A DNA stretch of 64,000 nucleotides from Parcubacteria group bacterium GW2011_GWA2_47_26 (GCA_001001705.1 LCOG01000002.1:20056-84055), one strand, 5' to 3'; shown: positions 3,127 to 55,660, numbered from the stretch's first letter. A program made the numbers and translations. The notes: generated from the sequence alone by a model not told the origin.

Positions 3127-3130
3127 TCTA

Positions 3131-7416: not shown

Positions 7417-7499
7417 GTATGAAATTTATAATGAAGAATATAGAATGTAAAATGGACGGGCCTGCCCGCCGAGTGTTATGGGGCGAAGAACCGAATGGC

Positions 7500-8294
7500 A
7501 TGCGCGGCGGGGCGAGAGGCGGGTACTCTCTGCTTTTGGCTTTGCTCATTACTGCGTCAGTCGCGGCGGCGTCTTCGGCGTTGGCGCGAATTATTGTGGC
7601 GGAAATCCGGCAGACTCGTTTTGTGGATAATGCCATTGTGGCGCAAGCCGCGGCCGAAAGCGGAGGAGAGCTGGGATTATTTCTGTTAAGAAAGACAAAC
7701 TATTTCAATAATCCACTCATTGCCGAGGCTATCTTGTCTCCCATTTCTATTGATACCGCTGGAGGTATCAGAGCAAGTGTAGTGGTTAGACCAACAGAAA
7801 CGCTACCAGTCTTTACCATTAGACAGAATGACTTCATCTCTTTTGCCATCCCTAATACTAGCCGCGCCCCACATCAAATAAACATCGCTTGGCGACCACT
7901 TGATCCAGTGGCCTGTGGTTCTAGTTGGATAGAAGTGGCACAGACGGTCTGGGATCCAGAAGATTTTTCAACTACTTACAATGCATGGCGTCAGCCGTAT
8001 TCCGCTCCTGCGAGAGCCACTGAAACTGTCGCAGTGCCTTTATTTTTAAGATCCAGAGGCGGACCGCGTGCTTTAGCGGTTGAGGAGTTGCGCATCAAGG
8101 CACTTTATTGTGATATTGCAGAATTACGTATCACCCCCTCTGAGCTATCCTCACGTGTTACTATTAATGCAATAGGCGAATATCGCGATTCAAAACAAGC
8201 CTTTAACATCGTCGCTCCCCGCAGTGCGCCTTTAGGCGGGTTGTTTGATTTTGTACTCTTTTCAGAAAGTGAGCTTAAAAAAGGAGTGGACTAA
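7500..8294 (+). CDS. Pilin-like protein with atypical N-terminus (PilX-like candidate)
   Basis: MRGGARGG|YSLLLALLITASVAAA hydrophobic helix after a leader similar to that of the 3389 pilin; conserved upstream nucleotide block. Confidence 0.5.
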   Translation: MRGGARGGYSLLLALLITASVAAASSALARIIVAEIRQTRFVDNAIVAQAAAESGGELGLFLLRKTNYFNNPLIAEAILSPISIDTAGGIRASVVVRPTETLPVFTIRQNDFISFAIPNTSRAPHQINIAWRPLDPVACGSSWIEVAQTVWDPEDFSTTYNAWRQPYSAPARATETVAVPLFLRSRGGPRALAVEELRIKALYCDIAELRITPSELSSRVTINAIGEYRDSKQAFNIVAPRSAPLGGLFDFVLFSESELKKGVD

Positions 8295-18331: not shown

Positions 18332-18369
18332 TTTTGCAGAGCAAAATTTAGAAGTGGTCCCTTTTTCCT
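18313..18369. repeat. Family F element containing the nifS stop codon and the iscU ORF 5' end
   Basis: GAAAAAAGGACCGCCTCTAATTTTGCAGAGCAAAATTTAGAAGTGGTCCCTTTTTCC. Confidence 0.8.
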
Positions 18370-23267: not shown

Positions 23268-23300
23268 TAAGGCGATCCGAAAGACGATCATATTAATTAT

Positions 23301-24512
23301 ATGCCCAACATGCAAAGAATAAATTCAAAAGAATATGCAGAACAAGTAAAAACGACGGCGCGCAACCTAGCTATATTTGGCGATCGTGCCGGCGCGTTTG
23401 AGTTTGCGCGCGCGATTCAAGAATTATTAAAAAATCCGGAGCTAAACGCGGAGGTGCGCCCACTGTACGAAGATGCGGAGCGGGACGCCTTATTTGCCGC
23501 GATTCCTGTGCTTCCGGATCGTGAAGTTTTGCAAGGGCTGGAAAAACATCTTGCGTATTATCTTGGGCAAGAAAATTATGATTTGCTCTCGGTCATAAAA
23601 AGCAAGCTTTCAGGCATTGATATTGTTGAAGAACGTGATGCGTTCCGCGCGATGTTACGCGATTCTTTAATGAACGCGGACGGCAAAATTTCCGAAAAGA
23701 TTGAGTTGCTGGATGGAAGTCAGGAGGGATCCCCGCGTAATTGGCTGTCATATTATTTGCAAACTGTTGGCGGCGTAATTCCCGACACGTTTAAGCGCAC
23801 AGAGTTTATTGCCAGCCGTCCGGTTGAGCATGCAAAACCAGTAGAACAAGCGCGGCTTAAGCGATTGATTGAGTTGTTTGATTACTTGCGGCTTTCCTCG
23901 GCTACGGGCGCGGGTTTTGAGGAGGAATTAGTGGCGGATTTTGACGAGCGGATCATGATTTTGCAAGATGGCAAAGTCACGCAAATTGATCCCAAAACCG
24001 ATGAAATTATGAGCAAGACTATGCCGGCAATGCTCACGGCGTTAAAGCAAGCATGGGCCAGACAAGCCGCGCAGCCGACTGATTTAGAAAAAGAAGCGCG
24101 GGAGCAGGCCAAAAGCCTTAATCCCGCTCAAAGCCAGCAAACAATCGCGGAGATTTTTACAGCCAAGAGTTCTAAAGATCAAAAAAACGGATTAGCGGCT
24201 TTATATGGCGCGATTGGCGGCGGTTTGGATATATTTCTCAAACAGATTTTGCCGACTTTACAAGCTCATCTTAAAGATGCGCCTGAAGCAGAGCGGAGCG
24301 CTTCGCTTTTGCAAAGCGGACTGATTACTCCAGCGGTGGCCAAAATATTCTTGCGGATTTATTTGGAAAAACTTTTGGGTTTTTCTATGGACCATGCCGC
24401 GGCTTTGGTTGGGCGCATGTTGGGCACTTTGTCTCCGGCAGAGCGCGACAAATACTTCAAGGTTGCTTATTACGATTTTGAAAAAGGCTGGTTTGTTTGG
24501 GGCGAAGTTTAA
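23301..24512 (+). CDS. Hypothetical protein
   Basis: Long ORF, no recognisable motif. Confidence 0.55.
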   Translation: MPNMQRINSKEYAEQVKTTARNLAIFGDRAGAFEFARAIQELLKNPELNAEVRPLYEDAERDALFAAIPVLPDREVLQGLEKHLAYYLGQENYDLLSVIKSKLSGIDIVEERDAFRAMLRDSLMNADGKISEKIELLDGSQEGSPRNWLSYYLQTVGGVIPDTFKRTEFIASRPVEHAKPVEQARLKRLIELFDYLRLSSATGAGFEEELVADFDERIMILQDGKVTQIDPKTDEIMSKTMPAMLTALKQAWARQAAQPTDLEKEAREQAKSLNPAQSQQTIAEIFTAKSSKDQKNGLAALYGAIGGGLDIFLKQILPTLQAHLKDAPEAERSASLLQSGLITPAVAKIFLRIYLEKLLGFSMDHAAALVGRMLGTLSPAERDKYFKVAYYDFEKGWFVWGEV

Positions 24513-24619
24513 TTCCATTCAAGGTGCCTCGTTGATTATGTCCGATGAAATTTTAATCAAAGGTACCGATGGCCCGCCTACGTTTCTGCTCCGTTTTAAT
24601 TCCGAGCAATAAAAAAAGA

Positions 24620-24643
24620 CTAGCATACTCGCTAGTATGCTAG
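24620..24643. promoter_or_regulatory. Inverted repeat CTAGCATACT-cgct-AGTATGCTAG upstream of the TrpR/YerC-like gene
   Basis: 10-bp arms; same arms recur at 25305. Confidence 0.5.
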
Positions 24644-24690
24644 GACCATATTTCTAGCGTGTCATCAGATGTGCGCTTAGACTATAGCCT

Positions 24691-25308
24691 ATGGCAAAAT
24701 TTAGTTCCCGACAAAGACTGGACCATAAACAGCGGCAAAAGGTATTGCTCGAGCTTTGCCATGCGTTAGTTGTGGTCAAGAAATTGGATGAAGCCGCTAA
24801 AGTGCTTGGCGATTTATTATCTGACCAAGAAATTGAAATGATTGCTAAGCGTTTGCAAATTGCAAAATTCTTGCTTCAGGACAAGAAGTACGAGGAAATT
24901 ATGGAGCAGTTAAAAGTTAGTGCTACTACTATTGCCCGAGTAAACCTTTGGCTCCAACAGGCCGGTGATGGGTTTCGGATGGTGATGTCCCGTGGGCTCG
25001 CTAAGAACAGTGTCAAGATTCCGGAGTGGCAGCCTCCGGCACGCAAAAGCGAAATGGCACGACGTTTCCCGCTTTATTATTGGCTGCAGGGATTGCTGGA
25101 AGGCATTATCCGCGCCGCAAATAATCGTCAGCGTGCAAAGATGCTGGAGACGCTCAAAGTGTTGAGGGTTTCTGGTAAAGGCAAGCGCGAAGTGTTTCGC
25201 TATGTGGAAGAGCTGATTCATAATCAGCAACGGAGCCCAAATCCGCGTCGTTTGCGGTCACTTGAGCTTGAAAAGGAAATGCAATTGGAGAAAGTAAAAC
25301 AATACTAG
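24691..25308 (+). CDS. TrpR/YerC/YecD-like DNA-binding protein
   Basis: LSDQEIEMIAKRLQIAKFLLQDKKYEEIMEQLKVSATTIARV helix-turn-helix resembling the Trp-repressor-like YerC family. Confidence 0.55.
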   Translation: MAKFSSRQRLDHKQRQKVLLELCHALVVVKKLDEAAKVLGDLLSDQEIEMIAKRLQIAKFLLQDKKYEEIMEQLKVSATTIARVNLWLQQAGDGFRMVMSRGLAKNSVKIPEWQPPARKSEMARRFPLYYWLQGLLEGIIRAANNRQRAKMLETLKVLRVSGKGKREVFRYVEELIHNQQRSPNPRRLRSLELEKEMQLEKVKQY

Positions 25309-25328
25309 CATACTAGCTAGTATGCTAG
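25305..25328. promoter_or_regulatory. Perfect palindrome CTAGCATACTAGCTAGTATGCTAG overlapping the stop codon of the TrpR-like gene
   Basis: Second copy of the same dyad; extends to a 30-bp perfect palindrome. Confidence 0.5.
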
Positions 25329-25472
25329 TATTAGCCAGATCAGATTCGGATCTTGCAAATCTTGTAAAAAAAGGACGGGATCACAAAAAGGCCCTTGCGG
25401 GCCCTTCGGATGAATTATCTATAATTTATAATAACACATGGGGTATAATTGTCAAGGATGGGGTGTGGATAG

Positions 25473-26807
25473 GTGAACACTATGCAAGATGAAATTTTAG
25501 TTAAAGGCACAGATGGGAAGTGGTATCTTCTGCAAGGGGAGGAGTTGGTGCCGTATGGGGCAGGTACGCAGGGACCAGATAAGCAGGCGGCAGGCGTGAA
25601 ACAAGAGTTGCCTAAAGGGGTGACAGAAGAGAGGCATAAAAAATTGGAAAAGGTGACCAAAGCGGTAGAGGAGCCACATGTGGCAAAAGAAATTTTCTTG
25701 CCAGCCGTAGCTACTCCGCCCCTTCCGGCTGTTTCTGCTCCCGCGCTTCGTGACTTGGTCACTGCCGCAGGCGCAACACGTGACCAAGTCACAGCTCCGG
25801 CCTATATTCCGCCGGAGTTGCCCGAATTAGTCGCGCCTGCTTTGGGGCCGGTAACACACGAAGGACATCCTTTATATAAGGAATTGCAGGAGCTTGTGGA
25901 TCAGGTGGTAAGTGAGAGCGCCGAAATAATTCGCGCTCAAGCGCCAGCTTGGGACGAAATTTTGCAAAAACGTTTCCGGTTCGTGATCTCGGCACGTTTG
26001 CGGGATATGCGGGACGCGGCAGAAACCAAAGCCTTGATATTGCGTGATCAGAAGATTGGTGGTTTAGGTTTGCGCGAGGCAGACGCGCAAAAGGTCACGG
26101 AGTTTACCGAGCGCGTTTTTCAAGAATTTCAAAAAAAGTGGCAAGAGTTTGAGGCAAAGCGCATTGAAGAATGGAAGCGCAAGAAGCGCGAAGAAGCGGC
26201 TCATAGCGAAGAAGTTTGCAAGAAAAAAGAAGAGCAGGAGATGGAGGAGAGATACGCCCGCCTTACAGGCGAGGTTGCAAAAGTGGCAGAGGTGGCAAAT
26301 GAGCCAAAGATTAAGGTACCCAAACCTCAAACCTCAAACCTCAAACCTCAAACAGCCCCAAATATTAAAGCTCAAAAGCCAAGGATAATAGAGCAATCCA
26401 GAACATCTGTCACTTCTGAAACATTTGCAACATCTGTGACTTTGCCGCGAAGCAGCAAAGTCACAGATGTCCGTACCCCGCCGAAACTCTTGGGACCGGT
26501 GGAGGAACTGCAAAGCATAAGCCCCCAAGATTTTAGACGGCTGGGCGCGCCTGGCGAGGCAACTGCAAAAATCAAGGCCAAAGTAGATTTTTTGGCGCAA
26601 GAATCATTTACAAAATACAGAAATGGAATCAAGGCTTGGCAAAGTTCGCCACTGCACAGACTGTATTTATTCATTAGCGGAATATCCTTACGGGAACGCA
26701 AGAGTATTGAGCAAGTTATAGGTGATTTACAGGTGCAAAACAAAGACACACTCACACCTGACGAATTTCATGCTATAATGGAGTTGAATAAACAATTGAG
26801 GTTTTAA
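25473..26807 (+). CDS. Hypothetical K/E-rich coiled-coil protein with PQTSNLK repeats
   Basis: Long ORF; contains an in-frame family D element and a 7-nt tandem repeat. Confidence 0.55.
   Translation: MNTMQDEILVKGTDGKWYLLQGEELVPYGAGTQGPDKQAAGVKQELPKGVTEERHKKLEKVTKAVEEPHVAKEIFLPAVATPPLPAVSAPALRDLVTAAGATRDQVTAPAYIPPELPELVAPALGPVTHEGHPLYKELQELVDQVVSESAEIIRAQAPAWDEILQKRFRFVISARLRDMRDAAETKALILRDQKIGGLGLREADAQKVTEFTERVFQEFQKKWQEFEAKRIEEWKRKKREEAAHSEEVCKKKEEQEMEERYARLTGEVAKVAEVANEPKIKVPKPQTSNLKPQTAPNIKAQKPRIIEQSRTSVTSETFATSVTLPRSSKVTDVRTPPKLLGPVEELQSISPQDFRRLGAPGEATAKIKAKVDFLAQESFTKYRNGIKAWQSSPLHRLYLFISGISLRERKSIEQVIGDLQVQNKDTLTPDEFHAIMELNKQLRF
25750..25791. repeat. Family D element within the 25473 gene
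   Basis: GTGACTTGGTCACTGCCGCAGGCGCAACACGTGACCAAGTCAC. Confidence 0.8.
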
Positions 26808-26816
26808 GGTATGCAA

Positions 26817-27020
26817 TCCCGTTAGAAGCCGCGGTCGTTGGTTTGTGGAGTAGATAATATTCATATGCAGAAAGGTCAAATGGTTTTAATAAATAACCTC
26901 GCAGGGCGGGCGACCGCGACCTGTCCCGTTAGAAGTGTTGTTCTAACGGGTAATCAATCAGGAGTCTGGGGAGTGTTCAGTATTATGGGCACTTCTAACG
27001 GGACCTGCTTCTAACGGGAT
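26817..27020. repeat. Family B element (expanded/composite) ending on the ATG of the PrgI-like gene
   Basis: ATCCCGTTAGAAGCCGCGGTCG ... GGCGACCGCGACCTGTCCCGTTAGAAGTGTTGTTCTAACGGG ... ACTTCTAACGGGACCTGCTTCTAACGGGAT|G. Confidence 0.75.
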
Positions 27021-27444
27021 GCAACAATTCGTCGTCCCCCAATTCATTGATGTTGAGGATAAGATCATCGGCCCGATTACCACGCGGCAGTTTATTATTA
27101 TGCTTGTCGTGGGACTGGCAATTTTTATCTTCTATAAAATACTGGCCTTTATTCCTTTTGTAATCTCGGCAATCCTTTTGTTCGGTGCCGGAGGAGTAAT
27201 TGCATTCTTGCGCATTAATGGTCAACCCTTTCATTTTTTTCTGCTTAACGTCTTTCAGACTTCGCGCCGGCCAAAATTAAAAGTTTGGAACAAAGAACTG
27301 ACTGACGCGGAATTAAGAGAAAGATTAACTGCTCCACTGCCGCCGCATCCACTGCCGCCGCCGCGCAAAGAATTGTTGACCACTTCACGGCTGAACGAGA
27401 TAGCGCTGGTCGTGGACACTGGCGGTGTTTATACGCCGGAATAA
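27019..27444 (+). CDS. PrgI/VirB3-like small membrane protein (T4SS component candidate)
   Basis: 141 aa, two hydrophobic helices, immediately upstream of and overlapping VirB4. Confidence 0.5.
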   Translation: MQQFVVPQFIDVEDKIIGPITTRQFIIMLVVGLAIFIFYKILAFIPFVISAILLFGAGGVIAFLRINGQPFHFFLLNVFQTSRRPKLKVWNKELTDAELRERLTAPLPPHPLPPPRKELLTTSRLNEIALVVDTGGVYTPE

Positions 27445-28147
27445 TATGCCCGAAATGCAATCAAAAAAATTAGCCGGAGCCAAACCCGGGCCCGCAGTCC
27501 AGCAGTATCTTGATATTGCGGAAATAAAAGAAGATGTAGTGGTTTTAAAAGATGGAACCCTGCGGGCCGTGCTCGCGGTTGCTTCAGTAAATTTCGGTTT
27601 AAAGTCCGAAGATGAACAAAATGCCACCATCTCCGCCTATGTGCAATTTATCAATGCTCTAGAGCATCCTTTGCAGATCGTGATTCAGTCCCGCAAGCTT
27701 AATATTGATGAGTATATAAATCGCCTGGAGCGCGCGGAGCATGAGCAGACCAATGATCTTCTGCGTCTGCAGATTACAAACTACCGCTCTTTTATTAAAG
27801 AATTGGTTGAACTCGGCGAAATAATGTCTAAACGTTTTTTTCTTGTTGTGCCATACTCGCCATTATCCGATAAACGCAAAGGGTTTTGGTCTAGGTTTTC
27901 AGAGCTTTTGCGTCCGCTAGTTACCGTGCGCATTCGAGAAGAGCGTTTTCGCGCTCATCGCGGAGCTCTTTTGCAAAGAGTCTCACATGTGCAAAACGGG
28001 CTGTCTTCCATTGGGCTGAAATCACAAGCGCTGGATACCCAAGCTTTGATTGAGTTGTACTACAGGGTTTATAATCCTGATATCGCTGAAGTGGAAAAAT
28101 TGCAGGATCTGGCTAAGATTAAGACTGAAGAGTCGTACGCGGTCTGA
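27425..28147 (+). CDS. virB4: VirB4/TrsE/PrgJ-family ATPase, N-terminal portion (split gene)
   Basis: N-terminal domain typical of Gram-positive VirB4 homologues; ends at TGA directly before a family G element. Confidence 0.65.
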   Translation: MFIRRNNMPEMQSKKLAGAKPGPAVQQYLDIAEIKEDVVVLKDGTLRAVLAVASVNFGLKSEDEQNATISAYVQFINALEHPLQIVIQSRKLNIDEYINRLERAEHEQTNDLLRLQITNYRSFIKELVELGEIMSKRFFLVVPYSPLSDKRKGFWSRFSELLRPLVTVRIREERFRAHRGALLQRVSHVQNGLSSIGLKSQALDTQALIELYYRVYNPDIAEVEKLQDLAKIKTEESYAV

Positions 28148-28149
28148 TT

Positions 28150-28235
28150 ATGTAGCATGTAGCCTGTAACATATAACACAAGATTGAAATTGAGTACGCT
28201 CTTGGGTTACATGCTACATGTTATAAGTTTACATG
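28150..28235. repeat. Family G hairpin element separating the two virB4 ORFs
   Basis: ATGTAGCATGTAGCCTGTAACATATAACACAAG...TTACATGCTACATGTTATAAGTTTACA. Confidence 0.7.
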
Positions 28236-28239
28236 ATTT

Positions 28240-30114
28240 ATGCCTTTACTCGGTAAGAAAAAACCCCCGATAGCTATCGGGGCGCCCCAGGTGACTGTGG
28301 CGGCGCAAAAAGCCAAAGCGGCCGAAGAGCGCATCGTGCTTGAAGAAGAGCGCGTATATCGGCGCGGTGTAGTTTCAGTGCGCGATATTATAGCGCCGGC
28401 TTCCATGCAGCTGACGCCTTCTTTTGTGAAGCTGGGCGATGTTTTTGTGCGCACCATTTTTGTCGTTTCTTATCCTCGCTATATCGCAGTGGGTTGGTTT
28501 ACGCCCATTGTTAATTTGCCGGTAACTTTGGATATTGGTATGTTTTTCTATCCGGTTAAGTCCGATGTTATTTTGAAGCAATTGAAGAAGAAAGTCGGCA
28601 CGCTTGAGGCCCAAGTTATTGCTGATTCGGAAAAAGGCGCTCCGCGCGATCCGATTCGCGAGACCGCCTTGCGCGATATTGAAAAGTTGCGCGACGATTT
28701 GACCCAAGGGACAGAAAAGTTTTTCCAGTTCGCTCTTTATGCGACAATTTACGCAAAAGACAAAGCCGAGCTGGAAAAGCTGACCGAGGATATAGAAGCG
28801 CTCTTCGGCAGCAAATTGATTTATTCTAAAAAAGTATTTTTCCAGGCGGAGCAAGGCTTTAATTCCACAATTCCGTTAGGCAATGACGAACTCATGATTG
28901 CCTTTAACATGAATTCCTCCCCGATTGCCTCTTCGTTTCCGTTTATCTCCGCGGATTTAACCTCGGATAACGGCATTCTCTACGGCATTAACCGTCACAA
29001 CAATAGCCTCATCCTGTTTGATCGTTTTTCTCTGCAGAATGCCAATTTCGTGGTCTTTGCCACCTCTGGCGCCGGTAAAAGCTATACCATGAAATTGGAA
29101 ATTTTGCGCTCTTTAATGCTTGGCACAGACGTAATTGTGATTGACCCGGAAATGGAATACAAGCATTTATCCGACGCGGTTGGCGGCACCTATATAAATA
29201 TTTCCCTGGCGGGCGAGGCCAAAGTAAATCCTTTTGATCTTTCGCGCCCGGTTGGCGAAGAGGTTAAGACCGAAGATATAATCCGTTCCGCGGTTATCAC
29301 GATTAAAGGATTGTTAAAAATAATGCTTGGTCAATTTACCCATGAAGAAGATGCCCTGATGGATCGCGCGCTTATTGAGACTTATGCGAAAAAAGACATT
29401 ACCGCCACCTCTGATCTTTCTAAAGTGGAGGCGCCAATTATGTCTGATTTGCAAGAAGTGCTGGAGGGCATGGAAGGCGGGGCTTCTTTGGCCGAGCGGC
29501 TGAAAAAATATACGACTGGAACATTTGGCAGTCTTATCAATAGCCCGACCAATGTTGATATGCGCAACCAGTTAGTGGTTTTCTCTGTTCGCGATTTGGA
29601 GGACGAGTTGCGGCCGATTGCCATTTACTCGTTAGTCAATTATATCTGGAATGTGGTGCGCTCGGAGCGCAAGAAAAGAATTTTGACCATTGATGAGGCT
29701 TGGTGGCTTATGCAAAATGAGGATTCGGCAAAATTCATTTTTGCGCTTGTTAAACGCGCGCGAAAATATTATCTTGGAGTAACAACCATTACGCAGGATG
29801 TAAACGACTTCCTGCTTAATCCTTACGGTAAAGCGATTGTAACCAACTCCGCCCTCCAGTTGCTTTTGAAGCAATCGCCCGCCGCTATCGATCTAGTCCA
29901 GCAGACCTTTATGCTTACTGAAGGGGAGAAATATTTACTTTTGGAATGTGCGGTTGGAGAAGGCATCTTTTTTGCCGGCGCAAAACACGCCGCTATAAAA
30001 GTCGTGGCTTCCTACGCCGAAGATCAGCTTGTTACGACCGACCCTCGCCAACTGCTTGAGCTGGAGGCGGCTAAGAAAGAATTTGAGGAACAAATGATGC
30101 CTAAGGGCCTATGA
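28240..30114 (+). CDS. virB4: VirB4/TrsE/PrgJ-family ATPase, C-terminal ATPase portion (split gene)
   Basis: Walker A FATSGAGKSYTM, Walker B ILTIDEAWWLM, conserved C-terminal motifs. Confidence 0.85.
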   Translation: MPLLGKKKPPIAIGAPQVTVAAQKAKAAEERIVLEEERVYRRGVVSVRDIIAPASMQLTPSFVKLGDVFVRTIFVVSYPRYIAVGWFTPIVNLPVTLDIGMFFYPVKSDVILKQLKKKVGTLEAQVIADSEKGAPRDPIRETALRDIEKLRDDLTQGTEKFFQFALYATIYAKDKAELEKLTEDIEALFGSKLIYSKKVFFQAEQGFNSTIPLGNDELMIAFNMNSSPIASSFPFISADLTSDNGILYGINRHNNSLILFDRFSLQNANFVVFATSGAGKSYTMKLEILRSLMLGTDVIVIDPEMEYKHLSDAVGGTYINISLAGEAKVNPFDLSRPVGEEVKTEDIIRSAVITIKGLLKIMLGQFTHEEDALMDRALIETYAKKDITATSDLSKVEAPIMSDLQEVLEGMEGGASLAERLKKYTTGTFGSLINSPTNVDMRNQLVVFSVRDLEDELRPIAIYSLVNYIWNVVRSERKKRILTIDEAWWLMQNEDSAKFIFALVKRARKYYLGVTTITQDVNDFLLNPYGKAIVTNSALQLLLKQSPAAIDLVQQTFMLTEGEKYLLLECAVGEGIFFAGAKHAAIKVVASYAEDQLVTTDPRQLLELEAAKKEFEEQMMPKGL

Positions 30115-30178
30115 CATGTAGCCTGTAACATGTAGCTCAAGGTCTTGTGTTATATGTTACAAGTTATAAGTTACAAAA
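30112..30178. repeat. Family G element after virB4
   Basis: ATGACATGTAGCCTGTAACATGTAGCTCAAGGTCTTGTGTTATATGTTACAAGTTATAAGTTACA. Confidence 0.7.
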
Positions 30179-30184
30179 ACCCAT

Positions 30185-30781
30185 ATGTCTCGCCGCACTA
30201 AAATAATCCTCGTAAGCGTTATAGTGATAATTATTTTGATTATACTTTTCTGGTTGATTTGGATAGGGCCGCAAATGTTGCGGCGCAATACAACAAATGT
30301 GCCCGCGCCACCACTAGAAACTCAAGGCGGGCTTGCCTTGCCTCTGTCGCCCGCAACTCCTCTCGGCGCGGCGCCGCAGACCGCCGAAGTCGGCGCGGAA
30401 GTGGCCCAGGCCTCGCTTGAAGCTTTTGCGCGCTCCTTTATTGAACGCTACGGCAGTTATTCCAACCAAAGCAATTATGACAATCTTGAAGATTTATATC
30501 CTTTTATGACTAAAAATCTTCAGCAATCAACTCAAGATTTTGTGCAAAGTGAACGGGCTAAAATGCGGACGCAAACACCAGCTTATTTTGGCATTACTAC
30601 GCGAGTATTATCTAGCATGGTGTCTCTATTGAATGATGATCGCGCCGGACTAGTTATTAAGACGCAACGGCGCGAGTCTGGCTCTGACCCGAACGCTTCG
30701 CGGCTCTATTATCAAGATGTAGAACTGAAACTAGTAATGGTGGGGGAGCAATGGAAAGTTGATGTGGCGGAATGGCAATAA
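30185..30781 (+). CDS. Bitopic membrane protein, VirB8-like (NTF2-like) candidate
   Basis: Short cytoplasmic N-term, one TM, ~150-aa external domain; position after VirB4. Confidence 0.35.
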   Translation: MSRRTKIILVSVIVIIILIILFWLIWIGPQMLRRNTTNVPAPPLETQGGLALPLSPATPLGAAPQTAEVGAEVAQASLEAFARSFIERYGSYSNQSNYDNLEDLYPFMTKNLQQSTQDFVQSERAKMRTQTPAYFGITTRVLSSMVSLLNDDRAGLVIKTQRRESGSDPNASRLYYQDVELKLVMVGEQWKVDVAEWQ

Positions 30782-32408: not shown

Positions 32409-34697
32409 ATGATCCGCTATAACTTATCAAGTCCAGTAAGTGCACTATCGCATATTGGCCGCACCGTGGAGACTCAACTGCGACACCTAGGAGTTCTCAC
32501 CATACAGGATCTCCTTTTTTATTTTCCGGTTCGCTACGACGATTTGCGCAATATCACCGAGATTAAAGATTTAAAAATCGGCGAAAGGGCAGTAGTGCGT
32601 GGAAAAATTGAGCTTATTCAAAGCCGCCGCAGCAAATATAGAAAGAAACTCCTTACCGAGGCCATTGTCTCTGATGCGACGGGCAGTTTAAAAATACTTT
32701 GGTTTGGCCAGCCTTGGCTAATTAAAATGTTTAAAACCGGCGATGAGCTGTATTTGGTTGGCGAAGTTAAAGACGATGGCTCCGGCGCGTATATGTCCTC
32801 GCCAAGCTATGAGCGCGCAAGCGGGCACGCGACAATTCATACGGGCCGCATTGTGCCAGTTTACGCTTTGACCGAAAAGCTTTCTCAAAAACAAGTGCGT
32901 TTTTTAATGAGTCGCGCTTTTCCGCTCGCTTCGAGCATAGTTGATTGGCTGTCTCAAGATTTGAGGACAAGATACAAATTATTGGATTTAAAACGCGCTA
33001 TTTCTTTTGTGCATTTTCCGCCGGATAATCAAAAAATGGAAGCGGCCCGGCGGCGTTTGAAATTTGATGAATTGCTGCGCTTGCAGATTTTTGCCGCTAA
33101 AGTAAAACAGGAACTCAAAAAATTACCCGCCCCGAAAGCGGTATTTAATGAGAAGGCGACAAAGCAATTTGTACAAGGCTTGCCTTTTGAGTTAACCGAG
33201 GCGCAACGCAAAGCGGCCTGGGAAATTGTCAAAGATATTAGTCGGCCGCGCCCAATGAATCGTTTGCTGGAGGGCGATGTTGGATCGGGAAAGACTGTCG
33301 TGGTTGCGATTGCGGCATTGAATGCGGTTGGTGTTTGTGACCATGTCACCGCGGCTAGTGACCTGGTCACAAACAAAGGTCAGGTGGCCATTATGGCGCC
33401 GACCGAAATTTTGGCGCGTCAACATTTCAAAACATTTTCAAAATTACTTGGACCCCATGGTGTGCAAGTAGAGTTACGCACCAGCAGTGAAAAAGGTAAA
33501 AAGGGGATTATAGACAGCAATGTAGTTGTGGGAACACATGCTTTAATACAAGACAGTGTAAAGTTCAAAGATTTGGTGCTCGCGGTTGTTGATGAACAGC
33601 ACCGTTTTGGCGTGCGTCAACGGCAAGCGCTCAAGGATAAGCGCGAGGATGGAAAAATGCCCCATCTGCTTACTTTGACCGCCACGCCAATCCCGCGTAG
33701 TTTGGCTTTAGTATTTTATGGCGATCTTGATCTCTCCGTGCTTAATGAAATGCCCAAGGGGCGGCAGAGAATTGAAACCGTGTTGGTAAGTAACGCTTCC
33801 CAACCCCCTCCTCATAAACCCACCCACCCTCCCCTTAAGTTAAGGGGAGGAGGCGAAAAAGGGACCGCCTCTAATTTTGCAAAGCAAAACTTAGAAGTGG
33901 TCCCTTTTTCGCGGGAACAGGCCTATCAATTTATCCGTACTGAAGTTGCCGCCGGCCACCAAGTCTTTTGGACATGCCCGATTATTGATCCTTCCGACAC
34001 GCTTGGTGTAAGAGCCGCGACCGAAGTATTTGAGCATTTGCGCACCGAAATTTTTTCTGATCTGCGCATTGGACTCTTACACGGGCGCATGAAGTCAAAA
34101 GAAAGAGAAAAAGTGATGGAAGCGTTTGTAGGCCCATCTTGTCATCATGAGCGTAGCGAAGGATCTCGGGATTCTTCGCCTGCGGTTCAGAATGACAGAG
34201 GACACACGATTGATATTCTCGTAGCCACGCCGGTTATTGAAGTTGGTATTGATGTGCCTAATGCTACAGTCATGGTTATTGAAGGAGCACAGCGTTTTGG
34301 CTTAGCCCAGCTTCATCAATTTCGCGGACGCGTTGGCCGGGGCGAGGCGAAATCGTATTGTTTGTTGATGGTGGAAGAAAAAGGGACCGCCTCTAATTTT
34401 GCTGCGCAAAATTTAGAAGTGGTCCCTTTTTCTGCGCGTATCAAGGCATTTTTAGAGTGCGACAATGGTTTTGAACTCGCCGAGCGCGATTTGACGCTTC
34501 GCGGTCCTGGCGATACTTATGGCATTGCCCAATCCGGTTTTCCGGAATTCAAAATCGCGAGTTTCGCGGATGTTGAAATTGCCAAAGAGGCCAAAGAAGC
34601 GGCGGAGGTGATTTTAACGCGCGATCCGGAACTTACGAACTATTCCGAGCTCAAACAGGCGATACTTGATAAAGAAGGCCGGACGCATTTAGAATAA
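32409..34697 (+). CDS. recG: ATP-dependent DNA helicase RecG carrying five in-frame palindromic elements
   Basis: Wedge domain, Walker A GDVGSGKT, DEQH box, helicase C motifs QFRGRVGR. Confidence 0.9.
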   Translation: MIRYNLSSPVSALSHIGRTVETQLRHLGVLTIQDLLFYFPVRYDDLRNITEIKDLKIGERAVVRGKIELIQSRRSKYRKKLLTEAIVSDATGSLKILWFGQPWLIKMFKTGDELYLVGEVKDDGSGAYMSSPSYERASGHATIHTGRIVPVYALTEKLSQKQVRFLMSRAFPLASSIVDWLSQDLRTRYKLLDLKRAISFVHFPPDNQKMEAARRRLKFDELLRLQIFAAKVKQELKKLPAPKAVFNEKATKQFVQGLPFELTEAQRKAAWEIVKDISRPRPMNRLLEGDVGSGKTVVVAIAALNAVGVCDHVTAASDLVTNKGQVAIMAPTEILARQHFKTFSKLLGPHGVQVELRTSSEKGKKGIIDSNVVVGTHALIQDSVKFKDLVLAVVDEQHRFGVRQRQALKDKREDGKMPHLLTLTATPIPRSLALVFYGDLDLSVLNEMPKGRQRIETVLVSNASQPPPHKPTHPPLKLRGGGEKGTASNFAKQNLEVVPFSREQAYQFIRTEVAAGHQVFWTCPIIDPSDTLGVRAATEVFEHLRTEIFSDLRIGLLHGRMKSKEREKVMEAFVGPSCHHERSEGSRDSSPAVQNDRGHTIDILVATPVIEVGIDVPNATVMVIEGAQRFGLAQLHQFRGRVGRGEAKSYCLLMVEEKGTASNFAAQNLEVVPFSARIKAFLECDNGFELAERDLTLRGPGDTYGIAQSGFPEFKIASFADVEIAKEAKEAAEVILTRDPELTNYSELKQAILDKEGRTHLE
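33337..33370. repeat. Family D short element within recG
   Basis: GTGACCATGTCACCGCGGCTAGTGACCTGGTCAC. Confidence 0.65.
33793..33854. repeat. Family E unit within recG, directly abutting a family F element
   Basis: CCCAACCCCCTCCTCATAAACCCACCCACCCTCCCCTTAAGTTAAGGGGAGGAGGCG. Confidence 0.65.
33855..33910. repeat. Family F element within recG (copy 1)
   Basis: GAAAAAGGGACCGCCTCTAATTTTGCAAAGCAAAACTTAGAAGTGGTCCCTTTTTC. Confidence 0.8.
34141..34197. repeat. Family A element (short form) within recG
   Basis: GTCATCATGAGCGTAGCGAAGGATCTCGGGATTCTTCGCCTGCGGTTCAGAATGAC. Confidence 0.8.
34376..34432. repeat. Family F element within recG (copy 2)
   Basis: GAAAAAGGGACCGCCTCTAATTTTGCTGCGCAAAATTTAGAAGTGGTCCCTTTTTCT. 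Confidence 0.8.
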
Positions 34698-34698: not shown

Positions 34699-34775
34699 GA
34701 AAAGAGAACGCCTCTAGTAAAAAAGAGAACGCCTCTAATTTTGCTGCGCAAAATTTAGAAGTGGTCCCTTTTTCT
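34699..34775. repeat. Family F element with partial left-arm duplication, just after recG stop
   Basis: AAAAGAGAACGCCTCTAGTAAAAAAGAGAACGCCTCTAATTTTGCTGCGCAAAATTTAGAAGTGGTCCCTTTTTC. Confidence 0.75.
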
Positions 34776-34873: not shown

Positions 34874-34909
34874 GTCCCGTGTTTGGCTCGATCGAGCCAA
34901 ACACGGGAC
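34874..34909. repeat. 36-bp perfect palindrome GTCCCGTGTTTGGCTCGATCGAGCCAAACACGGGAC
   Basis: Direct reading; followed by tandem GAAACGTCATAGG x2 at 34922..34950. Confidence 0.7.
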
Positions 34910-35254
34910 GAGTAGCGTTAAGGAAACGTCATAGGGAAACGTCATAGGGAACTAGGGTATAATTTTAGATGATTTAATTTATGACAATTTAATTTGTGCA
35001 CTTGACGCAGGATGGCCTGCTATTGTAGTATGTCAAAATTACCGCGTTGGTCAGGGGTTTTAAGTAAATGAGCCCCCTCACTAGCGCGGTAATAAATTAG
35101 CGTAAACACAGTGAACACATGGGCTGCCCACCCAAGCCGGGTGTTGTGCCAACCTTTTGATGGAGGAGCGGGGCGAATTAGCTGACACGATCCGCCACTA
35201 CGCGGGGGGTCACGAAGTACAAGCAACCTCGGACCGAAGAGGGGATCTGCAACA

Positions 35255-35516
35255 AATGAGTACGAACAACGGCAACGGTCAGAGCGGTGGGAACGGCCAC
35301 CATGGCAAGTTCCAGTCGTGCAACAACGACTTCTGCCTCCGCAATGGAGGCGTGATCGCGCCCGGCGAGTCGTGCCAGCGCGTGGGGAGCGAGCTCTTCC
35401 ACGCGGGCTGCTACCAGCTCTGGCAGCAGCACGTGGCGGAGCGTCAACGCCGTTTCGGTGGCGACGCCTCGATCCGCCACCGCACGCGCGCGGCGGTCAA
35501 CACCCTCGTCCCGTAG
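35255..35516 (+). CDS. Small Cys-containing protein encoded in a high-GC segment (start uncertain; ORF track 35157)
   Basis: GC3 about 90% in this frame versus about 50% in flanking genes; followed by a hairpin terminator. Confidence 0.3.
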
Positions 35517-35640
35517 CCCGCCAACCCCCTCACTTTTTGCTCCTTCCGTAGGCTCCTCCGCCTAAACCGCTGGCGGAGTTCGCAGCCGCAAACCCGCCCC
35601 GACACCTCGCGTGCCGGGGCCTTTTCTTTTTTGCATACAT

Positions 35641-35667
35641 AAAAAGCTCCCACATGGGGAGCCTTTT
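35641..35667. terminator. Rho-independent terminator-like hairpin AAAAAGCTCCCACATGGGGAGCCTTTT (bidirectional)
   Basis: GC stem GCTCCC/GGGAGC flanked by A-run and T-run. Confidence 0.6.
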
Positions 35668-35752: not shown

Positions 35753-35795
35753 TTCCCCTCTTAAGATAAGAGGGGATTAAGGGGAGTTATGAAGT
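35753..35795. repeat. Family E unit, intergenic
   Basis: ATTTCCCCTCTTAAGATAAGAGGGGATTAAGGGGAGTTATGAAGT. Confidence 0.6.
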
Positions 35796-35883: not shown

Positions 35884-37458
35884 TTATGGACATGGTCTGC
35901 TTTCCAGGCCTTTGATCAAATTTGTGGGATCCAGTAGTGACGGTGGTTTTGTAATTAGAAATTCTCGCGCACATTTGTTAGTGCCGATAGTACTCTGCCC
36001 CGGGGGGGGATTCCATCTAAAATTTCTTCGTGCCCGTCCTGGATAAGCTTCAAGGTGTAACATATCACAAAATGTGGCTTTTCCAAGAGTTTGTCCTTTA
36101 GTCACAGTGGCTCGCGCTCTTATACTGGATGGAACCGTTCCGCTATTTATCTCTCCGTATACTACCGTGATGTTGAGTTTTGGATGAAATACAAGTACAG
36201 CTACGCTTTGTCCCCCGCTGCATGGATAAAAATTATAAGTGTTAACAACCTCACCGCTGTCCAGCGCTACTACTTCGCCATCGCCTTGAGTATAAAGGTC
36301 AATCCCGGCGTGGCATCTCGCCCCTTGGGCACGGTCATCGCCCCAATTCCAAGAGATTTGTTGTAGACTGCCGGTCTTTATTGGGAGACATTGGTCCGTG
36401 ATGTTGTAGTTTGTAGCCCCGGTGGTCCATGTCCCAGTTTCTCGAATTTCCTCACCTGCTCCCGGGGGCTCAAGCTCTATCTTTTCTATTTGCTCTACTC
36501 GCAACGGCTGAAAAACCACCAAATCTGGATTTATAATCATCAAAATTATGTACGATCCCAAAACCAGTATAAGTCCAACCGAGGCATCCGCGATTTTGCG
36601 TTTGGCGTCGCTTATTTTATCCGGACTGCCGCCGGCGGTGAGCCATTTGAATCCGGCGTAAACAATCATTATTCCCGCGATTACCCCCACCACGGAAACC
36701 AAAAATTTATATACTGCGGCCAGGTATTGAGCGAGAAAATCAATGATCAGAAATTCTCTATCGCCTTCAGTTGTTCTAAATGGCACGGTAAAAGGTTGCA
36801 GTGTAACGAGCGGAATTTGCAAGCGGGGAAGAGCGATTTGAGCTGGGGGGAGTTCGGAGGTTGGAACGCATTGAGAGACAAATGTGCGTGTGGCCCGATG
36901 CCCCTCTTCTCTGATCTGACATCTAAACCCACTTGCGCAATCAGCATCTGTACCACACCCCTCACTTGCTGCTGTTAAAACACATCTCTCACTTTGACAT
37001 TGTAAGTTTGGCGAAGAAGAAGATACACATTGACTATTATTATTACAAGGGCATCCAATGGGCATGAACCCGTTGTGCCCCGGCCCTCTCGGCGCCATGA
37101 TGTCAGAAAAAGACATGCATGCATTGCGTGGCGAAACCCAAGCCTGACCCGCCGAGCATCGTCGATCGTTACAGTTTATAGTTTCAGCTGTTCCTTCGCC
37201 GCCTTGACATACGCGTAAACTCGTATTACATATTCCACCTCTTCCACAATCTGAATTACTTAAACATGCGCCCCCGCTATGAAAATATGCGGTTTGCATG
37301 CATTGCCTTGCGGCGAACTGGCAGAGATGGGGAGGGGCAAGACTAGCGCAATCGGAATCTTGGGTACAAGGTGTTGCTTGCGAGGTTAGCGGTAACATGA
37401 ATAATAGCAATGAAATAATGCTGAGCACTAAAAGCAATTGTTTTTGCGACCGTAACAT
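35884..37458 (-). CDS. Secreted Cys-rich protein with central TM hairpin (TrbC/VirB2-like) and C-terminal M23 (LytM) peptidase domain
   Basis: Signal peptide; repeated C-x-x-D-x-D-C motifs; two TM helices separated by a charged loop; M23 signatures HAGIDL...G.V.A...G.V and HLH (MLHLEAY). Confidence 0.7.
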   Translation of the reverse strand: MLRSQKQLLLVLSIISLLLFMLPLTSQATPCTQDSDCASLAPPHLCQFAARQCMQTAYFHSGGACLSNSDCGRGGICNTSLRVCQGGEGTAETINCNDRRCSAGQAWVSPRNACMSFSDIMAPRGPGHNGFMPIGCPCNNNSQCVSSSSPNLQCQSERCVLTAASEGCGTDADCASGFRCQIREEGHRATRTFVSQCVPTSELPPAQIALPRLQIPLVTLQPFTVPFRTTEGDREFLIIDFLAQYLAAVYKFLVSVVGVIAGIMIVYAGFKWLTAGGSPDKISDAKRKIADASVGLILVLGSYIILMIINPDLVVFQPLRVEQIEKIELEPPGAGEEIRETGTWTTGATNYNITDQCLPIKTGSLQQISWNWGDDRAQGARCHAGIDLYTQGDGEVVALDSGEVVNTYNFYPCSGGQSVAVLVFHPKLNITVVYGEINSGTVPSSIRARATVTKGQTLGKATFCDMLHLEAYPGRARRNFRWNPPPGQSTIGTNKCAREFLITKPPSLLDPTNLIKGLESRPCP

Positions 37459-37461
37459 ATT

Positions 37462-38163
37462 TTAGCGTAATAATTCCTGTATAGATTGGTTTACAGTATT
37501 TTGATCAATTGCTCCTGAAAATTTCCTCTCGCCAATGAAGAAATACGGCGTGGCGTCAACGCGCAAAAGTATGGCCTCGTTGAAGTTGCGCGCGACAAGA
37601 TCTTTGGTGCGTTCGGTTTTAAGGCAGTCTTCAAAGGTGGCTGTGTTTAAGCGAAGCTCCTGCGCTAGCGGGATAAAACTGGTTTCAGCTAATTCAGTTT
37701 GCCGTTCAAACAAAAGATCATGATATTCCCAGAATTTTCCTTGCTCCTCGGCGCATCGTGCGGCCTGCGCCGCTTTTTCCGCCAAAGGATGCAAACGCGT
37801 ATTCGGCAGATCTTTCCAAACTAATTTTACGCGGCCGCTGTACTGTTCAAGCACGCTTTTCAAAGTGGCCTCCACTTCCGCGCAAGAAGGACAGAAAAAA
37901 TCCCCGAACTCTACAATTGCAATAGCTGTGACCAAGTCACTTTCCGTTGTGGCTTGGTCACGGCCCGCGGGATCTCCGCGTACCGGATCAGTGGAGCGGA
38001 TAATGGGGCGGGAAGGCAGTGCGATCGTTGTGACCAAGTCACTTTCCGTTGTGACTTGGTCACGGTCGTCCGGCGGTATAAATGTATAATACGCCACAAT
38101 ACCAACAAAACCCGCCAAAAGTAGAGCGACAATTACGATAATGATGAAAGAAGGAGTACGCAT
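37462..38163 (-). CDS. dsbA: Membrane-anchored DsbA-like thiol:disulfide oxidoreductase (two in-frame family D elements)
   Basis: N-terminal TM, thioredoxin CPSC active site, DsbA-like helical insert. Confidence 0.7.
   Translation of the reverse strand: MRTPSFIIIVIVALLLAGFVGIVAYYTFIPPDDRDQVTTESDLVTTIALPSRPIIRSTDPVRGDPAGRDQATTESDLVTAIAIVEFGDFFCPSCAEVEATLKSVLEQYSGRVKLVWKDLPNTRLHPLAEKAAQAARCAEEQGKFWEYHDLLFERQTELAETSFIPLAQELRLNTATFEDCLKTERTKDLVARNFNEAILLRVDATPYFFIGERKFSGAIDQNTVNQSIQELLR
37928..37961. repeat. Family D variant within dsbA (copy 1)
   Basis: GTGACCAAGTCACTTTCCGTTGTGGCTTGGTCAC. Confidence 0.75.
38030..38063. repeat. Family D variant within dsbA (copy 2)
   Basis: GTGACCAAGTCACTTTCCGTTGTGACTTGGTCAC. 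Confidence 0.75.
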
Positions 38164-38187
38164 GTTGATTGGACCGTAGTCGGTAGT

Positions 38188-39405
38188 CTACCGTAAATTA
38201 ACCCTATACAACTGCCCGGAAATGCTGTCTGTAAAATAGAGAATCCGTTCGTCGTCAGATACAACAATATTATTGATGGTGTGATCTTCAGAAGGAATCG
38301 CGATTAAAGAGCGCTCGCCGGTGCGAAGATTTACGCGATAAAGATTGTCCGGGGTATTGCCGACTGCAGTCGGATACAAGCCGGCTCCGCGGGGAAGTTC
38401 AGTCGGTACGGCGCAATAGATTATTTCATCGGATCCAAAAGTGCATTTATCCACCCAAGTGTTAAGTCCGAGCGGGGTTTTGCCTTGCCCAATAGTGTCC
38501 GGCGTGGCCCCTGCAATCCAAAGCAAGGGTTTCCAATCCTCATCTCCGGAGGTAGCCGAGTAGAGTAGGCGCTCCCCGTCGGGCGAAAAGCGTCCGCGGA
38601 AACCAATGCCATTGGCGACCAAAGCGGGAAAATTTTCGCCTTGCTTTCCAACCATGAGTATTTCTTGTTCATTAAGCCCGCGCGGCGTACCCGTGCGCGA
38701 GAAGGCAATGATTTGGTCATTAGGCGACCAAGCTACCTGCACTTTATCAGCATTATTGCCCAAAGGTTCAATCGGCCTGGTACCCGAGCCGTCATTATTA
38801 GCGGTAGCCAGCCACCTGGAATCCTCATCAATACCAACAGACAAAAACGCCAAAGCCTCCGAGCGGGGAGAAAAATTAAATTGTTGCCAGTGGCTGGGAA
38901 GGGTCGTAGCCCGTTCAGTTTCAAAATTATATACGATATTTGATCCGTCAGGATATTCAAGCACAGCCTGATTGCGGTCCGGCGCCCAAGTAACATTGGA
39001 GACATTAAAGAACACGCGATCCGAAAGCGGCTCCAAAGTCCCATCAGGTCGGATGCGGTAGAACTTGCCGTCAGAACGATTGTAGTAGTTTACCGAGGAG
39101 CCGTCCGATGATATAGACGGCGTCAGTGTGGCAAAGGTGGTAAGCGCGGTGGTCTGCGTTAGTCCGCCTGTGGCAAGGGGTGAAGGCTGGAGTGTCGCGG
39201 CAGGTGTAACAACAGTTGGACGAGGTGGAGCAGGCAAGGCCGGAGGAAGCCCTACAGTAGGCGGCACAGCGGGCGGAACTGCTTCCGGTGCCGCCGGCGG
39301 CGCTATGATTGGTCTAAAAAAGAACCACCAAATGCCAAAGCCAATCGCGGTAGAGATAATTATAAAGCCTATGATGAGGATGATGCGTTTAATGCGTTCT
39401 TGCAT
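38188..39405 (-). CDS. Membrane-anchored TolB-like beta-propeller (PD40/WD40-like) protein with Pro/Ala-rich linker
   Basis: N-terminal TM, PAAPEAVPPAVPP linker, repeated SPDG/SPND beta-propeller blades. Confidence 0.5.
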   Translation of the reverse strand: MQERIKRIILIIGFIIISTAIGFGIWWFFFRPIIAPPAAPEAVPPAVPPTVGLPPALPAPPRPTVVTPAATLQPSPLATGGLTQTTALTTFATLTPSISSDGSSVNYYNRSDGKFYRIRPDGTLEPLSDRVFFNVSNVTWAPDRNQAVLEYPDGSNIVYNFETERATTLPSHWQQFNFSPRSEALAFLSVGIDEDSRWLATANNDGSGTRPIEPLGNNADKVQVAWSPNDQIIAFSRTGTPRGLNEQEILMVGKQGENFPALVANGIGFRGRFSPDGERLLYSATSGDEDWKPLLWIAGATPDTIGQGKTPLGLNTWVDKCTFGSDEIIYCAVPTELPRGAGLYPTAVGNTPDNLYRVNLRTGERSLIAIPSEDHTINNIVVSDDERILYFTDSISGQLYRVNLR

Positions 39406-55595: not shown

Positions 55596-55660
55596 AAAAG
55601 AGAACACTTCTAAATTTTGCAAAGCAAAATTAGAGGCGTTCTCTTTTTCGGCGTTCTCTT
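55596..55660. repeat. Family F element with right-arm duplication, intergenic
   Basis: GAAAAAGAGAACACTTCTAAATTTTGCAAAGCAAAATTAGAGGCGTTCTCTTTTTCGGCGTTCTCTTTTTCC. Confidence 0.7.

Follow-up and report, generated by a model that had tools for sequence, protein, structure and literature searches.

A pilin-type hairpin joined to an M23-like peptidase domain in a Parcubacterial protein and its modular family

The fusion protein and its gene neighbourhood

Patescibacteria represent a large share of bacterial diversity. In this work we analysed a stretch of 64,000 nucleotides from the ‘ultra-small’ groundwater organism Parcubacteria group bacterium GW2011_GWA2_47_26 (GCA_001001705.1 LCOG01000002.1:20056-84055), hereafter the window, and in particular one gene, whose predicted product combines a helical hairpin of the kind assigned to type IV secretion system (T4SS) pilins with a LytM/M23-like domain. 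Together with its relatives it forms a large Patescibacterial family that combines this hairpin with different putative cell-wall enzymes. An earlier note, made from the sequence alone, had singled out this locus, and its claims are taken up where the evidence bears on them. The features of the gene and of its immediate neighbours, in positions of the window and with their basis in brackets, are as follows.

35884..37458, minus strand: fusion gene (pilin hairpin plus M23-like domain), 524 residues, KKU13770.1 (list of open reading frames, ORFs; same protein on 8 contigs; GenBank name)
37375..37458, minus strand: signal peptide, residues 1-28 (hydropathy; cleavage site predicted from sequence)
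36859..37374, minus strand: Cys-rich region, residues 29-200, predicted extracellular (Cys positions; weak TIGR04201 match)
36739..36858, minus strand: linker, residues 201-240, with P-x-L-Q-I-P-L motif and short beta-hairpin (alignments A1, A2 and A4; model)
36517..36738, minus strand: VirB2/T4SS-pilin-type hairpin, residues 241-314, made of transmembrane (TM) helix 1, loop KWLTAGGSPDKISDAKRKIADAS, TM helix 2 and N-P-x-L-V-x-F (PF18895; AlphaFold2; hidden Markov model, HMM)
36394..36516, minus strand: acidic flexible linker, residues 315-355 (predicted local distance difference test score, pLDDT; alignment A4)
35887..36393, minus strand: LytM/M23-fold domain, residues 356-524, with Zn ligands H383/D387/H468 and six Cys (fold search, family alignments)
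35754..35776, minus strand: terminator-like hairpin, ~108 nt 3' of the fusion-gene stop codon (consensus scan only)
37462..38163, minus strand: membrane-anchored DsbA-like thiol oxidase with FCPSC, 3 bp upstream of the fusion gene (Thioredoxin_4, DSBA)
38188..39405, minus strand: membrane-anchored PD40 beta-propeller with Pro-rich stalk, 24 bp upstream of dsbA (PD40)

The 524-residue minus-strand ORF that the earlier note had described was confirmed, and the fusion gene is genuine and conserved: 8 public contigs, from Rifle-type groundwater metagenomes, encode the identical protein, and GenBank carries it as ‘hypothetical protein UX17_C0009G0010’ of Parcubacteria group bacterium GW2011_GWC2_45_7. 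The predicted signal peptide, also noticed earlier, is of Sec type, with R3 and K6 in the n-region, a hydrophobic core at residues 4-29 (hydropathy windows >1.6) and a cleavage site between TSQA and TP. In the full-length AlphaFold2 model, computed with 75 sequences, the domains show no confident packing against one another (predicted template modelling score 0.43). The linker of residues 201-240, which precedes the hairpin in all family members, is modelled with strands at 227-231 and 234-239, and the acidic linker, whose length varies across alignment A4, falls below a pLDDT of 50 at residues 334-348.

The pair of TM helices separated by a short charged loop was borne out by the model, in which helices at about residues 241-274 and 279-309 reach pLDDT >90 on either side of the K/R-rich loop. 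This region, which is free of Cys, belongs to the Pfam family T4SS_pilin (PF18895; residues 245-300, 33.8 bits against a cut-off of 26.6, E 3.7e-8) and has a sub-threshold match to a pilin-like family of Mycoplasma integrative and conjugative elements in NCBIfam. PF18895 proteins are the ‘VirB2-like pilins’ of the Patescibacterial T4SS and are essential in Southlakia epibionticum (PMC12102498, PMC10633639, PMC12857230). The TrbC/VirB2 pattern proposed in the earlier note is supported by membership of this Pfam family, and a direct comparison with an Agrobacterium VirB2 profile was not significant. The link to VirB2 is transitive, because relatives with 5-11 tandem hairpins match both the present hairpin (at ~1e-29) and Pfam TrbC/VirB2 (PF04956, up to 144.6 bits); a homology to experimentally established pilins is thus suggested by way of these relatives. 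PF18895 pilins are small stand-alone proteins (~70-190 residues), and the present protein, with 524 residues and a large domain on either side of the hairpin, lies outside that size range. The loop KWLTAGGSPDKISDAKRKIADAS is net positive and has acidic flanks, and under the positive-inside rule it would be cytoplasmic, placing both large domains outside the cell. Among all six-frame ORFs of the window, the fusion gene is the sole match of the family hairpin HMM.

As for the C-terminal domain, the structure model of residues 341-524, built on a 60-sequence alignment, has a pLDDT of 94.9, and its top Foldseek matches in the PDB are all M23/LytM proteins: Csd3 (E 4e-6), then ShyA, DipM, LytM and lysostaphin. 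Furthermore, the family profile matches M23 chains of the PDB at E 2e-4. The M23 domain claimed for this region is consequently retained as a LytM/M23 fold with an HAGID motif (H383...D387), but the Pfam M23 match stays below its cut-off, and the ‘HLH’ motif that had been reported is absent, the sequence at this place being M466-L-H468-L-E470. In the profile-to-PDB alignment H383-x-x-x-D387 corresponds to the HxxxD zinc motif, ‘Y-G-E436-I’ aligns with the M23 ‘Y-x-H-L’, and ‘M466-L-H468-L-E’ aligns with the canonical ‘H-L-H-F-E’. The earlier note had named loss of the HxxxD and HxH residues as grounds for abandoning its view; HxxxD is kept, but HxH is not, its first His being Met. The zinc ligands H383, D387 and H468 (the second His of H-x-H) are invariant in 60/60 family sequences (alignment A3). 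E436 is invariant both in A3 and in the 32 sequences of A4, and M466 is invariant in A4 and nearly so in A3. The invariance of E436 speaks for constraint on the active site and against decay. In other zinc peptidases, such as thermolysin, carboxypeptidase A and VanX, the general base is normally a carboxylate. The domain is probably an active variant in which E436 would serve as the substitute general base, and a peptidase activity is plausible. Six Cys conserved across the family alignments and a C-terminal extension of ~60 residues complete it.

The N-terminal region is more modest than the more than 30 Cys first announced: the protein has 26, namely 20 in residues 29-200, none in residues 201-330 and six in the C-terminal domain, so that the counts are even in both the N-terminal region and the C-terminal domain. 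Repeated C-x-x-D-x-D-C-like modules were recovered in part, the exact motif occurring only twice but looser copies (CLSNSDC, CNNNSQC) bringing the number to ~4-5. Among about five such modules, four open with C-x5-C containing polar or acidic residues (CTQDSDC, CLSNSDC, CNNNSQC and CGTDADC). The Cys-rich repeat TIGR04201 matches this region weakly (E 0.003, below cut-off), a homology search with the N-terminal region alone returned no homologues, and AlphaFold2 gives it no confident fold (pLDDT <50).

Both neighbours named in the earlier note are present. The DsbA has an N-terminal TM helix, the FCPSC motif and matches to Thioredoxin_4 (E 2.4e-25, 90.1 bits) and DSBA (E 3.2e-16, 60.1 bits); the membrane-anchored beta-propeller matches PD40 with 30.1 bits against a cut-off of 20.9, and a comparison with PDB sequences returned solely designed propellers and trefoils. 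In the direction of minus-strand transcription the order is LemA, HtpX, a 226-residue protein, the propeller, DsbA and the fusion gene, with gaps of 38 bp between the 226-residue protein and the propeller, 24 bp between propeller and DsbA, and 3 bp between DsbA and the fusion gene. The order propeller-DsbA-fusion-RecG recurs in the related loci L014, L015 and L019, where the fusion proteins are 32-45% and the propellers 45-47% identical to those of the window, and in L009 a DsbA gene lies ahead of an array of four pilin-fusion genes, where no propeller match was found. On the gene orders compared, the linkage of DsbA and propeller to the fusion gene is conserved synteny and not chance. In the family member P0002 the N-terminal part is devoid of Cys and DsbA is still adjacent, which fits a role towards the six conserved Cys of the M23-like domain; the contig of P0004 is too short to show gene neighbours. 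The dsbA gene has, in addition, a peculiarity of its own: its linker (window 37860-38060) contains a direct duplication at the protein level, DQVTTESDLVTTIALPS / DQATTESDLVTAIAIVE, and GTGACCAAGTCAC is repeated in the DNA at 37928 and 38030.

A modular family with tandem arrays

An exhaustive HMMER search with residues 205-524 yielded 23,593 cluster representatives at E <= 1e-3, of which 75 reach E <= 1e-30. Among the best 151 representatives, hairpin and M23-like domain occur in the same order in 40, the hairpin accompanies something else in 72, and 39 have the M23-like domain alone. The fusion architecture, which the earlier note regarded as a novel component, is therefore seen, but as a member of a large modular family and not as a one-off. 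The 72 proteins typically consist of a signal peptide, a variable Cys-rich region, the hairpin and, in most, a C-terminal domain of 190-300 residues, which Pfam recognised in a large minority; in counts that overlap, because VanY and Peptidase_M15 fall on the same proteins, these are SLT (9), Peptidase_C39_2 (9), VanY (8), Peptidase_M15 (6), NlpC/P60 (3), and one each of Amidase_2, Amidase_5, 3D, GDSL lipase and canonical M23. In these sister fusions the SLT, NlpC/P60 and M15 domains are intact and above the Pfam cut-off. The hairpin of the window's protein is 59-71% identical to those of fusions whose other domains are unrelated, and the motifs P-x-L-Q-I-P-L/G before and I-N-P-x-L-V-x-F-K-x-L after the hairpin are conserved whatever is fused to it. 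At the level of sequence it is thus firmly shown that the constant part of the family is a pilin-type hairpin with conserved flanking motifs and that the variable part is a cell-wall enzyme.

A scan of loci, with one genome per species, returned ten. Seven of them have Patescibacterial or Candidate Phyla Radiation names, or the synteny of the window (Parcubacteria, Uhrbacteria, two Buchananbacteria, Magasanikiibacteriota and a Patescibacteria-group metagenome-assembled genome, MAG, are among the names); the others are two MAGs labelled ‘Gammaproteobacteria’ without such a check and one labelled Woesearchaeota, the latter with the M23-like domain only. The records of L009, L014 and L017 are titled ‘uncultured Gammaproteobacteria bacterium’. 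For L014 this label is probably wrong, because its LemA-HtpX-propeller-DsbA-fusion-RecG synteny is shared with the Parcubacterial window.

In five of the loci (L009-L012 and L017) three or four fusion genes stand in tandem. Within these arrays identity amounts to 34-66% between hairpins and to as much as 70% between N-terminal parts, whereas the C-terminal domains are unrelated (14-28%) and comprise M23-like, C39-like, NlpC/P60, 3D and M15_4 domains and a weak glucosaminidase match. The genes are mostly 1-95 bp apart or overlapping, with larger gaps of 172 bp in L012 and 326 bp in L009. Paralogue arrays with a conserved N-terminal carrier and variable C-terminal enzymes are a mark of polymorphic toxins, and this mark is found here. 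A classical toxin-immunity arrangement was considered and rejected, since zero intervening ORFs were seen between the array genes; in the window, the fusion gene is followed by the terminator-like hairpin and not by an immunity gene.

Further architectures were noted in the same family. In a 923-residue protein of L014 the hairpin and the M23-like domain, the two parts that Pfam recognised, follow an esterase-like N-terminal domain and precede a tail that by eye resembles SLT. A domain with a GHSxGG motif of serine-hydrolase type is joined to the M23-like domain in P0007, P0016, P0020, P0023, P0042 and L014:9017-11788, placed either ahead of the hairpin or behind the M23-like domain, and may be an esterase acting on modified peptidoglycan. 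Finally, the ‘poly-pilins’ P0053, P0071, P0074, P0088, P0092 and P0101 carry 5-11 tandem T4SS_pilin hairpins in up to 1147 residues, and some of them strongly match Pfam TrbC/VirB2.

Secretion genes and other elements of the window

The window also contains a T4SS gene cluster (20670-30781) and a repeated palindromic element, with the following features.

20670-23267: 865-residue polytopic protein of the T4SS cluster, no Pfam match, VirB6-like candidate
27019..27444, plus strand: PrgI (VirB3-like) (PF12666 on the near-identical contig L002; ORFs)
27425..28147, plus strand: TraC-like protein (PF26593 on L002; ORFs)
28240..30114, plus strand: VirB4-like ATPase (DUF87/AAA_10/P-loop_TraG on a near-identical contig; NCBI ‘VirB4 component-like’)
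30185..30781, plus strand: small anchored protein with a weak TcpC (VirB8-like) match (PF12642, E 0.0032, below cut-off)
18327-18358, 33870-33901, 34392-34423 and 34734-34765, plus strand, and 55603-55634, minus strand: copies of the palindromic element

The cluster also holds unannotated proteins of 403 and 444 residues and, in its middle, a Trp-repressor-like helix-turn-helix protein; those of its ORFs that were scanned contain no Pfam hydrolase domain. The fusion gene lies 5.8 kb from virB4, on the opposite strand and outside the virB4 operon. This is within the ±20 coding sequences that have been used as a criterion of T4SS association (PMC12102498). The co-occurrence with virB4 that the earlier note suggested checking is therefore seen in the window, in the form of a VirB4/PrgI/TraC-like cluster, but none of the 10 related loci has virB4, PrgI or TraC-like genes within ±10 kb, and tight operonic linkage to virB4 was rejected on this ground. 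A type IV pilus gene cluster, with a PilB-type ATPase, a PilC-type platform protein, four proteins that carry the pilin N-methylation motif and a PilD-type prepilin peptidase, occupies positions 13-8294, so that the window holds both kinds of cluster.

The palindromic element is ~55 nt long (AAAAGAGAACGCCTCTAATTTTGCnnnGCAAAATTTAGAAGTGGTCCCTTTTTC) and occurs in five copies, against a chance expectation of none. Two of them are in frame within recG, encoding ...KGTASNFA(K/A)QNLEVVPFS..., and the others lie at gene ends; as RNA the element would fold into one long hairpin (-21.7 kcal/mol, z -2.3). In appearance it is an element of the repetitive extragenic palindrome or miniature inverted-repeat transposable element kind that is tolerated inside coding sequence. 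The spacer of 1.2 kb between recG and the fusion gene, whose length differs by ~106 bp among near-identical contigs, contains a GC-rich island (35100-35650, up to 73% GC in a genome of ~47%) with a possible ORF of 86-119 residues on the plus strand (35157/35257..35516), terminator-like hairpins at 35605-35619 and 35646-35662, and a predicted folding stronger than that of shuffled sequences on both strands (z -3.8 and -4.3). In the same spacer, a perfect 18-bp inverted repeat (GTCCCGTGTTTGGCTCGA/TCGAGCCAAACACGGGAC, 34874-34909) came up as a chance-level microRNA match. An Rfam search of the whole window, repeated on the spacer at relaxed threshold, gave only tRNAs and chance-level matches.

Proposed function and comparison with known systems

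On balance, we slightly favour the view that the fusion protein is a pilin-tethered peptidoglycan endopeptidase, that is, a Sec-exported, two-headed envelope protein performing a VirB1-like job on a VirB2-like carrier. After removal of the signal peptide, the hairpin would span the membrane, its K/R-rich loop facing the cytoplasm, and would hold the array of Cys-rich modules and the LytM/M23 zinc domain outside the cell, where the DsbA encoded upstream would form 10 + 3 possible disulfides. The M23-like domain would then cut peptide cross-links beside the T4SS apparatus, in the cell's own wall and/or in that of an attached host cell. We infer this topology, the disulfides, catalysis with Glu436 as base, the coupling to the T4SS and the target wall from the predicted protein and its gene context. 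A VirB1-type function on a VirB2-type module is the most economical reading because the VirB1 homologues of Gram-positive systems are all membrane-tethered. The arrays and the variety of bond specificities exceed the needs of channel assembly and fit an action on the wall of a host. Moreover, by the logic of gene fusions, a pilin hairpin that carries a wall hydrolase would tie pilins to peptidoglycan cleavage.

Several observations weigh against this proposal. As regards the carrier, the hairpin profile has zero matches among PDB sequences, and in hhalign it reaches a probability of only 1.4%, not significant, against an alignment of annotated VirB2 proteins from Agrobacterium, Sinorhizobium, Mesorhizobium and Acetobacter; besides, no T4SS pilus has been observed so far in Patescibacteria, where ‘pilin’ is an inference of the literature (PMC12102498, PMC10633639, PMC12857230). 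As regards the enzyme, the match to Pfam M23 (PF01551) has 21.7 bits, below the cut-off of 28.7, both auxiliary catalytic His of M23 are replaced, by E436 and M466, and an altered site can leave a LytM domain inactive, examples being those of PrgK, EnvC, DipM and LECT2. As regards the coupling to secretion, housekeeping genes (a comF-like gene, two tRNA genes and recG) and a 169-residue ORF separate virB4 from the fusion gene, and the related loci are free of the three T4SS genes within the distance given above.

The last of these points is also what a housekeeping autolysin would lead one to expect, in which the hairpin would be a mere anchor of pilin ancestry and the enzyme would remodel the cell's own wall in growth and division with no tie to a secretion system. 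The gene in fact lies among LemA, HtpX, phosphoglucomutase and RecG, in a synteny kept in L014, L015 and L019, and the paralogue P0006 lies among ribosomal-protein genes. We nevertheless think this explanation rather unlikely. The hairpin, its cytoplasmic loop and the P-x-L-Q-I-P and N-P-x-L-V-x-F motifs are far better conserved than a generic anchor needs, which suggests that the hairpin contacts something specific, either itself or T4SS components, and arrays of 3-4 paralogues of differing bond specificity would be unusual for housekeeping autolysins in genomes of ~1 Mb.

A rival of similarly low probability accepts the tethered architecture and denies the cleavage: the LytM module would bind peptidoglycan without cutting it and would serve as a host-wall adhesin, or else would regulate or scaffold another hydrolase. 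Met in place of the first His of HxH and Glu in place of the third catalytic His would suit such a role, and the structural neighbours include the inactive domains of EnvC, DipM, SpoIIQ, LECT2 and PrgK. The LytM domain of PrgK, without the HxxxD and HxH zinc motifs, is a precedent for a degenerate, regulatory module (PMC11323569), and an adhesin role has been proposed for inactive homologues of VirB1 (PMC12857230). Here, however, all three zinc ligands are invariant, the replacing Glu436 is invariant as well and of a kind usual in other zinc peptidases, and sister fusions carry intact SLT, NlpC/P60 and M15 domains. The regulatory LytM domains of EnvC and NlpD, like that of PrgK, are not known to keep Zn ligands.

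The arrays invite a bolder extension, which we put forward as speculative and consider unlikely: the pilins would carry a swappable arsenal of hydrolases, the fusions would enter the T4SS and would be displayed on, or released from, a pilus-like structure reaching the host, and with each hairpin would come an enzyme for another bond (endopeptidase, carboxypeptidase, amidase or lytic transglycosylase), so that the host wall could be breached or harvested. The T4SS genes and the pilin array of S. epibionticum, the one system tested, are reported to be essential for its epibiotic growth (PMC12102498, PMC10633639, PMC12857230). If true, this extension would represent a new mode of T4SS effector delivery and would give a function to the essential pilin arrays of S. 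epibionticum.

Least probable of all, and in our opinion very unlikely, is a precursor polyprotein whose flanking motifs would be processing sites releasing a T4SS pilin of ~80 residues and, in soluble form, the Cys-rich domain and the hydrolase. In its favour, maturation of canonical TrbC and VirB2 pilins involves trimming of both termini, the conserved motifs stand directly on either side of the hairpin independently of the fused domain, relatives with 3-11 tandem hairpins per polypeptide resemble poly-pilin precursors, and no stand-alone pilin gene was found with the hairpin HMM among the six-frame ORFs of the window. Against it, no dedicated TraF-like maturation protease was recognised near the gene (the HtpX encoded upstream is a general quality-control protease), and the motifs are equally explicable as membrane-interface or packing elements.

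To return to the tethered endopeptidase, its components are of known kinds, namely Patescibacterial VirB2-like pilins and tethered T4SS hydrolases, and the fusion family is apparently undescribed: full-text literature searches, with most subscription journals outside their coverage, found neither pilin-hydrolase fusions nor the modular family described, and in domain-architecture databases such proteins will figure as uncommented entries. The family offers concrete, expressible candidates for passage through the own or the host wall, and the M23-like domain with Glu and Met for His is a testable variant of a well-studied enzyme mechanism. Compared with the M23 endopeptidases LytM, lysostaphin, Csd3, ShyA and StM23, it differs in the Glu and Met that replace the auxiliary His, in its six Cys and in its extension.

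The closest relatives of the carrier are the PF18895 pilins of S. epibionticum (SEML1_0014-0019), which share with the hairpin the Pfam family, the two helices with a short basic loop and the Sec signal, as well as a VirB4/PrgI cluster of the FATA-like mating-pair-formation type (MPF-FATA-like) in the genome and, in the relatives of the fusion, the multi-gene arrays. They differ in being of 127-190 residues with no enzymatic domain, whereas the fusion hairpin is embedded between two large domains, and, unlike them, the fusion gene is outside the virB4 operon. In S. epibionticum the small PF18895 pilins are separate proteins, and lysozyme-like and DD-peptidase (M15-like) hydrolases are likewise separate and encoded beside virB4; judged by their predicted proteins, the kinds of part that are separate there are fused in the lineages studied here.

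With the VirB1 type of Gram-positive systems (PrgK of pCF10, TraG of pIP501, TcpG and CwlT), whose members are always membrane-anchored with extracellular hydrolase domains (PMC12857230), the fusion protein would share a membrane anchor and an extracellular hydrolase domain, as far as its predicted topology goes. PrgK is anchored by a single TM helix that has no relation to pilins, and its SLT and CHAP domains do the work beside an inactive LytM domain (PMC11323569), whereas the fusion protein has a pilin hairpin and keeps its Zn ligands, and no SLT or CHAP was found in it. A position inside the T4SS operon and an interaction with a VirB8-like protein count as further marks of the VirB1 type; the fusion gene lies outside the virB4 operon, on the opposite strand.

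A more distant parallel concerns secretion machines that carry wall-degrading enzymes. VgrG-3 of Vibrio cholerae bears a lysozyme-like domain on a spike protein of the type VI secretion system, and the X-T4SS of Xanthomonas has peptidoglycan-hydrolase effectors. Machine and carrier are different in these cases, and the fusion arrays are without immunity genes between their members; the concept is the same, a part of a secretion machine joined to interchangeable wall-degrading C-terminal ‘warheads.’

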